Shown here: piece after piece, positions 12,425-23,706 of the stretch | Layout: every line of letters starts with the position of its first letter | Numbering within the stretch: position 1 is the first letter of the stretch | Assembly (NCBI GenBank): GCA_051652765.1 | Contig: JBOFUV010000121.1 | Location: forward strand, 1 to 26,032 | Reading direction: 5' to 3' | Origin: Microcoleaceae cyanobacterium | Lineage (GTDB): Bacteria > Cyanobacteriota > Cyanobacteriia > Cyanobacteriales > Microcoleaceae | Length of the DNA: 26,032 nucleotides | Notes under the pieces: model-generated | What the model was told of the DNA's origin: nothing | The model's database searches: none | The model's input: only the letters and a program-made list of their open reading frames with translations | Position numbers and translations under genes: made by a program

Positions 12425-12850
12425 GAGAGCCAGCGCAGGTGGTTGCGGATTCAGACCGAATCTGAGGAAAGTCCGGGCTCCCGAAAGACCAAACTTGCTG
12501 GATAACGCCCAGTGCGAGCGATCGCGAGGATAGTGCCACAGAAAGATACCGCCAATTGATCATCGGTCAAGAGTGATTTGTGATTTGTAAGTCTCAAAAG
12601 GCAAATGACAAGGGACAGGTGACATTTGGTAAGGGTGCAAAGGTGCGGTAAGAGCGCACCAGCAATGTCGAGAGGCATTGGCTCGGTAAACCCCGGTTGG
12701 GAGCAAGGTCGGAGGAACTAGGGTTGGTCTTTTTCCCGTTCCGCTTTAGGTGTACCGCTAGAGGTGCTTGGTAACAGGCATCCCAGATAGATAACTGCCA
12801 TCTTAGCTAATTTAGCTCAGATAACAGAACCCGGCTTATGTCTGACTCTC
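12425..12850 (+). ncRNA. rnpB: RNase P RNA, type A
   Basis: GAGGAAAGTCCGGGCT, AGTGCCACAGAAA, GGTAAACCCC, AACAGAACCCGGCTTA; P1 pairing of GAGAGCCAG with CTGACTCTC. Confidence 0.98.
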
Positions 12851-13216
12851 TTTATTAATTTTTTTGTACCCATCGCAGTTTTTAAGTCACTGAGTGACAT
12901 CCTAACCGTTTGTCCCCCTTTTCAAGGAGATTCGAGGACGCTCTAGATCGCATCTAAACAAAGGGGCTGTATGGCAATCAAGACTCTTGCGTGAGAGGGG
13001 GATGGAGGGGGCAATGCCCTGCTTGGGAAAAAGTTCCTAAACCCTTTCTGGTTTTTTCATGATGATTTGGGATTGCCATCTGTTGGGATTGCATCGGTTT
13101 AGAGACCCTGAACCTTCACTGCTACATTCTCGATTTGCAGGGAATGTAGCAGACCCGTTGGCTTAAGGTTTTATACTGGAAGACGGTACTAAGAAACTGT
13201 GAATTTATTCTGAACT

Positions 13217-21021: not shown

Positions 21022-21690
21022 ATGAGACCACCAAAAGATCAGCACGCACAAATTGAATATCTCAGTCAATTTGTTGAAGAGGTACGTCGGGATAGAATTA
21101 AGACTGTTTTAGAGCAGAGAACTCGGCAGATTACAGTTGTTTTAGAAGATCTTTATCAGTCGCAAAATGTGAGTGCCTGCCTCAGAAGTTGTGATTGTTT
21201 TGGAGTACAAGATGTTCATATTATTGAAAATCGTAACCTGTTTGATCTCAATCGAGAGATCAGTGTGGGGTCAGATCGTTGGTTAACTCTATATCGCTAT
21301 AGTCAGCCTAAGATTAATAATACTCAAGTTTGTATTGACCGATTGAAATCTCTGGGGTATCAAATTGTTGCAACAACTCCCCATGAACAAAAGATGACGC
21401 TTGAACAACTCTCAATGACTCCAAAGTCAGCCTTAATGTTTGGTACGGAACTCACAGGACTCTCTGAATTTGCCCAATCTCAAGCTGATTGTTTGGTATG
21501 GATTCCGATGTTTGGGTTTAGTGAAAGTTTGAATATTTCAGTGAGTGTTGCCTTGTGCTTATATGAACTGACTAAACGTTTACGAGAGTCAGCGATACAA
21601 TGGGCTTTGAGTGAGCCGGAGAAGCAGAATATTCAACTGAGTTGGCTTCGTCAATCTATTCAGGGAGGAGAACTTCTGTCGCAATCCTAA
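21022..21690 (+). CDS. trmH: SpoU/TrmH-family RNA 2'-O-methyltransferase (tRNA Gm18-like)
   Basis: VVLEDLYQSQNVSACLRSCDCFG, FGTELTG, IPMFGFSESLNISVS. Confidence 0.85.
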   Translation: MRPPKDQHAQIEYLSQFVEEVRRDRIKTVLEQRTRQITVVLEDLYQSQNVSACLRSCDCFGVQDVHIIENRNLFDLNREISVGSDRWLTLYRYSQPKINNTQVCIDRLKSLGYQIVATTPHEQKMTLEQLSMTPKSALMFGTELTGLSEFAQSQADCLVWIPMFGFSESLNISVSVALCLYELTKRLRESAIQWALSEPEKQNIQLSWLRQSIQGGELLSQS

Positions 21691-22344: not shown

Positions 22345-22866
22345 CTAAATCTCTTCCTGATGTCCTCGCCAAAACTGTTCAGCAAAGGCTACCACTGGAT
22401 GTAACGGAGCTTTTGGGTTGGCTCGTAAAGCGATCCCAGCTTCCTCTGGGGTGCGGTTTCCTTTGTGGGCATTACACCGTTCGCAGGCTGCCACAACGTT
22501 GTCCCAGGTATGAGTCCCACCGCGAGATCGGGGCATGACGTGGTCAATGGTGAGATGCTTGGTCGTGCCACAATACTGACATTTGTGATGATCTCGACGC
22601 AGGATTTCTCGACGATTAACTGGGGGAACTTTCCAAAGTCGTTCATTGCCCGTCATGGTCAAACGGATATGTTCAGGGACATGCAACACTACACTGGGAG
22701 AATGAACGAGCCAGCCAGAACCCGCTGTTTCGCAGTCAAACGGCTCAGCCTTGCCAGTCACCAACAGGGCGATCGCCCGTTTAATATTAATCCGACTCAT
22801 GGGCAGATAGTTCTTTGAAAACACCACCACAGATTGCCTCAATATGTCAGTTGTACTGCTGGTCAC
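22345..22866 (-). CDS. HNH endonuclease (McrA-like, Zn-binding)
   Basis: RRDHHKCQYCG, LTIDHVMPRSRGG, WDNVVAACERCNAHKG; GGAGG upstream of the GTG start. Confidence 0.92.
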   Translation of the reverse strand: MTSSTTDILRQSVVVFSKNYLPMSRINIKRAIALLVTGKAEPFDCETAGSGWLVHSPSVVLHVPEHIRLTMTGNERLWKVPPVNRREILRRDHHKCQYCGTTKHLTIDHVMPRSRGGTHTWDNVVAACERCNAHKGNRTPEEAGIALRANPKAPLHPVVAFAEQFWRGHQEEI

Positions 22867-22914
22867 GGCATTCCTCCCCAGTTAATCGTCTTCTGTCTGG
22901 ACTGAATCACTACA

Positions 22915-22947
22915 AACCCCCGCTTCGAGAATTCTGAAGCGGGGGTT
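22915..22947 (-). terminator. Strong hairpin between the leader ORF and the HNH gene (putative attenuator terminator)
   Basis: Perfect 12-bp stem AACCCCCGCTTC / GAAGCGGGGGTT with a 9-nt loop; on the minus strand it ends in a short U-rich tail, GGGGGUUUGUAGU. Confidence 0.65.
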
Positions 22948-22970
22948 AGAAAAGGACTTAGCTTTTCTGA

Positions 22971-23291
22971 CTAGGTGGATACGGCCAGTTCATGGCTATC
23001 CCCCCCGCTGTGCAATCCTGAACTCAAAAGTGAATTCAAAACTAAATTCAAACTCTGTAAATTAACGAACTGCCAATCGAACCCTAAAATCGCTAATGGA
23101 TGAGTTTTGAGACTCCCTATCCTTAGCTTAATCCCTTGACTCCCAATCCCATAGCCACCCCGCTCAACCTCATGATCCGCCAGCACAGCTATTCTGCCCG
23201 ACCGGAACGCACTGAAGCCTCTAAATCTATGACGACTGAATGAAGATGTTAGGAGAATGGAGAGAAATGTCACGGGAAGGCTAAACCTCAC
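22971..23291 (-). CDS. Putative leader ORF upstream of HNH
   Basis: 106-codon open frame whose stop lies 23 nt before the hairpin; coding status unproven. Confidence 0.4.
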   Translation of the reverse strand: MRFSLPVTFLSILLTSSFSRHRFRGFSAFRSGRIAVLADHEVERGGYGIGSQGIKLRIGSLKTHPLAILGFDWQFVNLQSLNLVLNSLLSSGLHSGGDSHELAVST

Positions 23292-23319: not shown

Positions 23320-23351
23320 ATACTACACTAAGTATTACAGCAATGTCTACT
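23320..23351. promoter_or_regulatory. Candidate RHH operator repeats in the divergent promoter
   Basis: ATACTACA (23320), GTATTACA (23332) and TGTCTACT (23344) at 12-bp spacing. Confidence 0.45.
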
Positions 23352-23370: not shown

Positions 23371-23706
23371 ATGTATACTTTACCCCGAACTTCGACCACT
23401 GAAATGGAAGTCACCAGCATCCGCTTGGAGAGAGAACTGAAGGAAAAACTGAAAGATCTAGCAAAAAACCAGGGTTATCAGGCCCTGATTCGAGATATTC
23501 TCTGGAATTATGTTCAGCAGAAATCAGGAGACTATCGACCTCAATTGTCCCGAGATGATATTCGGGCCAGCTTTTCGGCGATCGCGCAACAAGAAGAATG
23601 CTGTGTTCTGACTGGAAAAACGATTCAACTTCATGAACCGATGTTATTGGGCCTGACGTTCCAGGGGGAAATGGTTCCCCTCAGTGTGGGCAGTTTAAAC
23701 GATTAG
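23371..23706 (+). CDS. trcR: Ribbon-helix-helix regulator, probably the TrcR (All0854) orthologue
   Basis: MEVTSIRLERELKEKLKDLA..QGYQALIRDILWNYV RHH pattern; GGAGG 8 nt before ATG 23371; divergent from HNH plus an alr0857-like gene, as recalled for the Anabaena PCC 7120 all0854 locus. Confidence 0.7.
   Translation: MYTLPRTSTTEMEVTSIRLERELKEKLKDLAKNQGYQALIRDILWNYVQQKSGDYRPQLSRDDIRASFSAIAQQEECCVLTGKTIQLHEPMLLGLTFQGEMVPLSVGSLND

Follow-up and report, generated by a model that had tools for sequence, protein, structure and literature searches.

The classical attenuators (trp, his, leu, and phe) control biosynthesis and have short leaders with runs of one amino acid. The upstream open reading frames (uORFs) of Bacillus subtilis bmrB and vmlR and of Escherichia coli toiL are mostly short as well, contain specific stall sites, and precede resistance or toxin-antitoxin genes. 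A uORF attenuator of the whiB7/wblC genes, for which the primary paper is reportedly that of Lee, Lee and Roe from 2022, is found in Actinobacteria. Its uORF is long and variable (83 aa in M. smegmatis), and the end of this uORF overlaps the antiterminator; efficient translation leads to formation of the intrinsic terminator, and translation stress leads to read-through (PMC10274678; bioRxiv 10.1101/2025.10.10.681568).

Another relevant system is the TrcR regulon of Anabaena PCC 7120, which involves the same locus, operator, and genes as those analyzed here, is induced by chloramphenicol, and includes all8564, a paralogue of the HNH gene that is preceded by “orf1” and stands at the head of the trn array (PMC10272220, PMC8421152). 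According to Wang et al. (2023, PMC10272220), the promoter in the all0854-asr0855 intergenic region is a TrcR target. TrcR binds to it and represses the chloramphenicol-induced operon that starts there; without TrcR, asr0855, alr0856, and alr0857 are up 9.2-, 7.2-, and 8.5-fold, respectively. The same paper links TrcR to translational fidelity, reports induction of the regulon by streptomycin, states that the pathway that lowers TrcR is unknown, and handles asr0855 (252 nt, which matches the size of the Nostocales leader ORF) as coding for a hypothetical protein, with promoter control only. Two operator repeats alone have been published to suffice for chloramphenicol inducibility of a promoter, so that an attenuator is not needed to explain the induction. 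Translation-stress induction of this operon is already known and has a described promoter-level cause, TrcR, which an earlier note on this DNA, made from the sequence alone, had overlooked. The character strings “attenuat” and “terminat(or)” are absent from the main texts of PMC10272220 and of Santamaria-Gomez et al. 2021 (PMC8421152), “leader” and “uORF” are absent from PMC10272220, and PMC13613805, in its accessible part, names no HNH. The earlier note knew of no description of such a sensor at this locus, and none of the attenuator was found in the literature searched, with most subscription journals outside it. What appears to be new is this RNA and its leader logic; the mechanism class and the locus are known.

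The DNA analyzed here is a 26,032-nt stretch (the window) of a Microcoleaceae cyanobacterium (contig JBOFUV010000121.1 of assembly GCA_051652765.1). Judging from sequence comparison and predicted folds, its conserved leader is probably a ribosome-controlled attenuator of the whiB7/wblC-like uORF type, stacked under TrcR. The likeness to whiB7/wblC includes a long uORF with a variable peptide between promoter and gene, an antiterminator at the uORF end that is predicted by folding to be exclusive with an intrinsic terminator, a broad amino acid content, and promoter control on top. It is a likeness of mechanism, with no homology of the RNAs claimed: the RNA is followed by HNH and alr0857 in cyanobacteria rather than being located upstream of a whiB7/wblC gene in Actinobacteria. 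The cyanobacterial switch is predicted, whereas the actinobacterial one is experimental; it belongs to another phylum, has a nuclease and an alr0857-family protein downstream rather than an activator, is controlled upstream by a repressor, and has no alanine enrichment in the leader (Ala, 5.4%). As in the classical attenuators, the leader ORF overlaps alternative terminator and antiterminator helices; in contrast to them, it is about 60 to 125 codons long and has no codon run. The 22 representatives do not fit the classical type, in which a biosynthetic operon is preceded by a short leader rich in cognate codons that follow one another. With bmrB, vmlR, and toiL, this leader would share uORF-dependent premature termination under ribosome-targeting drugs.

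The trcR divergon and its leader RNA

Synteny and profile matches identify the locus as the trcR/asr0855-alr0856(HNH)-alr0857 divergon (Table 1). The trcR product, counted from the ATG at 23371, has 111 aa, including Leu44 and Ala72, and its ORF is extendable to 23356; Anabaena TrcR has the same 111-aa length, and Leu44 and Ala72 are the two residues mutated there (PMC10272220). The promoter has the organization typical of the TrcR regulon, with the tandem TGTAATAC/TGTAGTAT repeats placed over the -10 box, beside trcR. The operator is located at -51 to -32 relative to the trcR ATG, within the reported footprint of -53 to -28, and its spacer is one base longer than in the Anabaena site. For comparison, 130 trcR loci were fetched, of which 120 remained after 10 duplicates had been dropped; TGTAGTAT was present with no more than one mismatch in 119 of these. 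Other TrcR-operator-like tandem repeats in the same genome, at C30:15980, C148:91887, C158:1771, and C52:15208, are candidates, two of which precede what we take to be a rubredoxin-like ORF and a methyltransferase-like ORF, respectively. The window also contains the RNase P RNA (RF00010) at 12426-12853 and, convergent with the operon end, a gene at 21022-21690 that resembles TrmH/SpoU-family RNA methyltransferases, with a match below all curated cut-offs.

Table 1. Positions of the features of the trcR locus in the window
Feature	Positions	Strand	Basis
trcR (All0854 orthologue), ribbon-helix-helix repressor	23371..23706	+	synteny, weak RHH matches
Sigma70-type leader promoter, -35 TAGACA 23349-23344, -10 TAGTAT 23325-23320	23320..23349	-	promoter scan
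TrcR operator, tandem TGTAATAC / TGTAGTAT, overlaps -10 box	23320..23339	.	repeat comparison
Leader ORF (asr0855 equivalent), 100 codons from conserved GTG 23273	22971..23273	-	frame conservation
Antiterminator strand (AT) AGCGGGGG, consensus AAGCGGGAG, read Ser-Gly in main frame	23002..23009	-	conservation
Hairpin P1, consensus GGTACAG...CTGTACC, degenerate in window; stop codon next	22977..23001	-	alignment, folding
Hairpin P2, 7 bp, sequence-variable	22948..22968	-	folding
Predicted intrinsic terminator, perfect 12-bp stem 22947-22915, tail TTTGTAGT 22916-22909	22909..22947	-	folding, alignment
HNH endonuclease (Alr0856 orthologue)	22345..22866	-	domain match; GGAGG 22877-22873 outside hairpin
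alr0857-family protein, 127 aa	21777..22160	-	NF045647, PF28246

The coordinates given in the earlier note were all correct on re-check. The leader ORF had been read there on the minus strand from a GTG at 23291 to a TAG stop at 22971, giving 106 codons; however, the start that is conserved in homologues corresponds to the in-frame GTG at 23273, the likely start, which sits 12 nt behind a GAGG (23289-23286) and 46 nt past the -10 box. The AT strand AGCGGGGG (23009-23002) is complementary to CCCCCGCT (22945-22938) in the 5' arm of the terminator (T5), and P1 and P2 are predicted to form a three-way junction that brings AT next to T5. For the P2 segment, folding was better than the mean of the shuffled sequences in 93 of 98 loci (median z of -1.5). 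The 12-bp terminator hairpin alone has a predicted energy of -23.3 kcal/mol and is located 48 nt ahead of the HNH GTG at 22866, with no promoter-like site in between in the promoter scan. It was not listed by the consensus terminator scan, which considers loops of 3 to 8, the loop of the perfect stem being 9. A second AGCGGGG copy (23164), which the earlier note had pointed out, can be ascribed to chance, as no more than 3 of 104 loci share it and it remained without a pairing partner in all folds. Rfam 15 gave no riboswitch, T-box, or HEARO match at the gathering score and none among the weak matches, and no tRNA was found at the element.

In 104 of the 120 nonduplicate trcR loci, the AT core is accompanied by the small hairpin that follows it and by the terminator arm, so that the arrangement first seen in the window goes beyond chance. 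The distance from the AT core to the terminator arm is 57 to 96 nt (95 loci tallied), and the consensus order is AAGCGGGAG, P1, stop codon, variable P2, CCCCCGCTTC, loop, GAAGCGGGGG, and U-rich tail. A covariance model built from 55 of the 104 loci matches 50 of 61 relatives and, in a sample taken from the whole cyanobacterial class, 59 of 151 genomes; according to a comparison of lists, trcR is present in 91 of the 151 genomes and in 58 of the 59 that have the RNA. By sequence comparison, the RNA travels with HNH/alr0857 and not with trcR. Among the 61 relatives, all 8 that lack an alr0857 match also lack the RNA, 4 of them despite having trcR, and where HNH-alr0857 has relocated away from trcR, the RNA has relocated too. 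In 40 further loci, the RNA is followed by HNH in 19, by alr0857 without HNH in 18, and by neither in 3. In all, alr0857 is found behind the element in 34 of these 40 distant loci and stands alone in 18, which makes it the steadier target.

The covariance model search found no second copy of the RNA in the genome of the window, and none precedes the paralogous HNH on contig C70 of that genome. Four trcR loci (L035, L050, L055, and L060) have HNH or alr0857 nearby with no match to the RNA model; their leaders have possibly been lost or shortened. Conversely, four copies of the leader and RNA (L162, L195, L206, and L208) have neither HNH nor alr0857 behind them; three of these are close to tRNA genes, and one of the four is followed by a 393-aa ORF.

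Reading frame and peptide of the leader

Homologous leader frames are mostly 60 to 125 codons long and are open through AGCGGG. In 100 of the 104 loci, a start no more than 75 nt from the -10 box, usually a GTG at +32 to +53, is followed by a frame that is open through AT; the remaining 4 have an ORF of 78 to 87 codons with a start further in. With the conserved motif excluded, 22 of the 24 sequence clusters have an open variable core; dinucleotide shuffles predict 3.1 such clusters, and the antisense strand gives 2 of 24. An outside test covered 40 of the 80 places matched by the model, mostly in other families and including several close kin, and used the 150 nt upstream of AT, which lie outside the covariance model. 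A single named frame was open in 40 of the 40 loci, compared to 8.3 expected; the other frames were open in 3 and 7, and the antisense frames in 7, 7, and 9. A uORF of at least 40 codons ended in the expected window in 39 of these 40 loci. The leader frame, whose conservation the earlier note had proposed to check, is kept both in the clusters and in the outside loci, with the reservation that the loci are related and the counts overstate independence.

The leader ORF has no Pfam or NCBIfam match. Its dN/dS is 0.57 to 0.77 in five groups, versus 0.07 to 0.17 for HNH, and indels within four clades keep the frame, coming in multiples of three. Among the representative peptides, 19 of 231 pairs align at E<0.01, with a weak Phe-x-Gly core; 10 of 100 leaders cross AT in another frame, and C-termini occur in three frames. 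Each of the 22 representatives contains 18 to 20 of the 20 amino acids and 39 to 51 codon types. The sequence comparison suggests that the peptide is likely a by-product, and the dN/dS values below 1, together with a recurring Ser-Gly...Pro-x-stop tail, leave room for a function of the peptide. The same 22 representatives use AGA/AGG for 49% of their Arg codons and ATA for 34% of their Ile codons, compared to 16% and 14%, respectively, in the HNH genes; this excess may be due to a lack of codon selection or to sensitivity to scarce tRNAs.

The best-surviving alternative, although rather unlikely, is that asr0855 is a real gene for a small protein, followed by a leaky unregulated terminator that sets the leader/downstream ratio, with all stress control exerted by TrcR. 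Such a gene would be consistent with the dN/dS values below 1 and the weak Phe-x-Gly core, with the equal, 7- to 9-fold, rise of the three genes in the trcR mutant, and with the sufficiency of the operator repeats for induction. However, the scarcity of alignable peptide pairs and the C-termini in three frames argue against it, and it leaves unexplained why a near-invariant strand complementary to the terminator arm is kept at a fixed distance from it.

The stop codon of the leader is never less than 16 nt after AT and never less than 20 nt before the terminator arm (95 loci), the distance to the terminator being 20 to 54 nt; such positions would let a ribosome cover AT and spare the terminator arm. 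Loci in which the frame ends at an earlier stop were also examined for decay of the stop at the junction, with no clear signal (10 of 17 versus 28 of 37).

Alternative pairings and the proposed switch

The view that the terminator and antiterminator pairings are mutually exclusive agrees with the predicted folds of two sets of 58 and 40 loci. With the 3' arm not yet made, AT:T5 forms, closing the P1/P2 junction, in 57 of the 58 loci of the first set and in all 40 of the second; for the full-length RNA, the terminator is predicted in equally many loci of each set (57 and 40). At equilibrium, the terminator form of the window is favored by 7.3 kcal/mol, and it takes over near 22918, so that antitermination must be kinetic. 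When the 30 nt around the stop were held unpaired, AT:T5 survived in 39 of 55 loci, including the window, and was lost only in the other 16, all of which have stops within 20 nt of AT. Accordingly, the idea of the earlier note that a ribosome finishing the leader masks AT is not supported for the window, and the ribosome would act by passage rather than by sitting at the stop.

Covariation was assessed in two alignments. In the diverse alignment, which was fitted to the structure, two-sided change was seen at 14 pairs of P1 and the terminator, a number reached in 0 of 500 shuffles, and AT:T5 has 2 such pairs (459 of 500 shuffles as high); by another count, AT:T5 has 10 cells versus 4.7 (3 of 500 shuffles). 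In the first, highly conserved alignment, covariation was weak, with 155 of 500 shuffles for AT:T5. The covariation sought by the earlier note is therefore clear for P1 and the terminator in the structure-fitted alignment and thin for AT:T5 itself, which can be expected if three strands must change together.

Comparison of the homologous sequences provides the anatomy of the element together with its open frame, a fixed window for the stop, the predicted exclusive pairings, and the link to HNH/alr0857 and tRNA arrays. As for the switch itself, with its leader translation, polymerase pause, termination at the hairpin, and direction, we infer the following sequence of events. The leader would be translated from the conserved GTG, and a pause of the polymerase near the stem would give the ribosome time. 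A ribosome arriving in time would melt AT:T5, the local stem would win, and transcription would end. A slowed or stalled ribosome would leave the AT:T5 junction in place, and the polymerase would read on into HNH and alr0857. Given its broad amino acid and codon content, each leader would respond to problems of elongation in general and not to a single amino acid. With TrcR repression and the attenuator combined, full output would need both the loss of TrcR and slow ribosomes. The core proposal of the earlier note, that translation leads to termination and impaired translation to read-through, is in part supported by the frame, the stop position, and the predicted folding across 144 homologous loci, as well as by the known stress behavior of the operon.

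Expression data bear on this proposal in different ways. Anabaena RNA-seq values for asr0855, alr0856, and alr0857 are 23, 97, and 47, respectively, in the wild type and 215, 701, and 397 in the trcR mutant (PMC10272220). The leader is not in excess, contrary to strong termination, with the qualification that a 252-nt gene may be undercounted. In a microarray of an erythromycin-grown strain, asr0855 and all8564 were raised, and alr0856 and alr0857 were not listed (PMC9938897, Supplementary Table 2), a pattern that fits termination after asr0855 and not relief of termination. Contigs from public RNA libraries for a Nostoc homologue bridge the hairpin; their depth, given as one figure per contig, goes in opposite directions in two studies. 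Coupling of transcription and translation is not universal, and a review of the subject (PMC7858274), as far as its accessible text goes, contains nothing decisive on cyanobacteria.

The finding that the downstream genes read higher than the leader in the Anabaena RNA-seq would also fit a role in RNA processing or stability, in which the leader is cut or degraded, the GC stem shields the end of the HNH-alr0857 message, and ribosomes gate the nuclease. We regard this possibility as very unlikely. It would be favored by the weak U-tails in the window and in Microcoleus: as the earlier note had cautioned, the window tail TTTGTAGT is short of U, with 5 of 8 and at most three in a row. Nevertheless, a U-rich tail (4 to 7 of 8 U) follows the stem in 104 of 104 loci, and an end-protecting stem has no need of an alternative upstream pairing.

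Even less probable is an opposite or different input, whereby read-through needs a ribosome on the terminator arm, e.g., following stop read-through under misreading drugs. The link of TrcR to translational fidelity, the induction of its regulon by streptomycin, and the use of TAG as the commonest stop (49 of 95 loci) would be in line with such an input. However, the frame past the stop is not preferentially open, the arm being reached in 58, 58, and 65 of 95 loci in the three frames, and the stop is always at least 20 nt ahead of the arm; stop read-through was accordingly rejected as the input.

Downstream genes and tRNA arrays

The structure model of the HNH protein is confident only in the HNH core, and its N terminus has a pLDDT of <50. 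IshB has been described as a combination of PLMP and HNH of about 180 aa (PMC10734217). The 173-aa HNH protein of the window fits this description in size and in its HNH domain; the PLMP likeness consists of a weak similarity of the N-terminal 40 residues to the PLMP region of cyanobacterial IscB N-termini, at an hhalign probability of 57% over 32 columns. Size and layout of the protein therefore recall IshB, which can be considered a lead from sequence comparison. The least probable reading of all is that this IshB-like nuclease works with the leader RNA as with an omega-RNA, the variable 5' part serving as a guide; the upstream location of the RNA would agree with that in IscB loci. Arguments against it are the absence of an Rfam match (HEARO included), the 18 of 40 loci in which the RNA precedes alr0857 and HNH is missing, the reading frame kept by the variable part, and the absence of an RRXRR match at E 10.

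The alpha/beta model of Alr0857 is confident (pLDDT 89), and its fold has no Foldseek match at E 0.001, the best Z being 4.1. Language-model look-alikes of Alr0857 include WapI, with PF24716 on 16 to 48% of the members in two clusters; this loose WapI link, a model-based lead, hints at an immunity-like fold.

Additional copies of the RNA are located in front of HNH paralogues at the head of tRNA arrays. From 113 records with a match, 11 plasmid loci were fetched; 9 of these encode close HNH homologues and contain the RNA, a uORF of 70 to 73 codons, and a tRNA array behind, and the two with distant HNH homologues have no RNA. In the PCC 7120 delta plasmid (NC_003273.1; 2133-3010 of locus L170), the uORF and the RNA are located between the mapped promoter and all8564. 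This 72-codon uORF is absent from the annotation of the record and fits the “orf1” drawn in Suppl. Fig. 9 of the all8564 promoter paper. The promoter of all8564 has been mapped by 5'-RACE in PCC 7120 and lies upstream of both the uORF and the RNA, so that all8564 is transcribed through the element and, for that paralogue, a promoter of its own past the hairpin is unlikely. Since the trn array is served by a separate promoter located after all8564, the switch would govern the nuclease and not the tRNAs directly.

In seven genomes (G074, G176, G187, G167, G156, G198, and G114; e.g., loci L190, L194, and L195), extra trcR-like copies, matched in two pieces, adjoin extra RNA copies, and several of these also have tRNA genes. 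Such arrangements suggest, at the sequence level, a mobile trcR-leader-HNH-alr0857-tRNA cassette.

A bolder extension of the ribosome-controlled attenuator, which we consider unlikely, would make the leader the primary sensor of the whole TrcR response. Slow ribosomes would open the attenuator, Alr0857 or HNH would inactivate or destabilize TrcR, and rtcB, rsgA, rimK, and cryptic tRNA arrays would be turned on; the switch would have been carried onto mobile tRNA arrays with the IshB-like nuclease. If true, this feedback would supply the “unknown pathway” of TrcR loss.

For translation stress in cyanobacteria, the attenuator would be a concrete, testable sensor, both at the trcR locus and before the nuclease gene of the stress-induced tRNA arrays. 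It would add a second, predicted, sensor to a known translation-stress response and an uncatalogued structured RNA, found in 59 of the 151 sampled cyanobacterial genomes. Accordingly, asr0855 and “orf1” would be re-annotated as regulatory leaders. The attenuator would also extend the long-uORF design known from whiB7 to a second phylum, and cyanobacterial transcription-translation coupling would have a natural test case.
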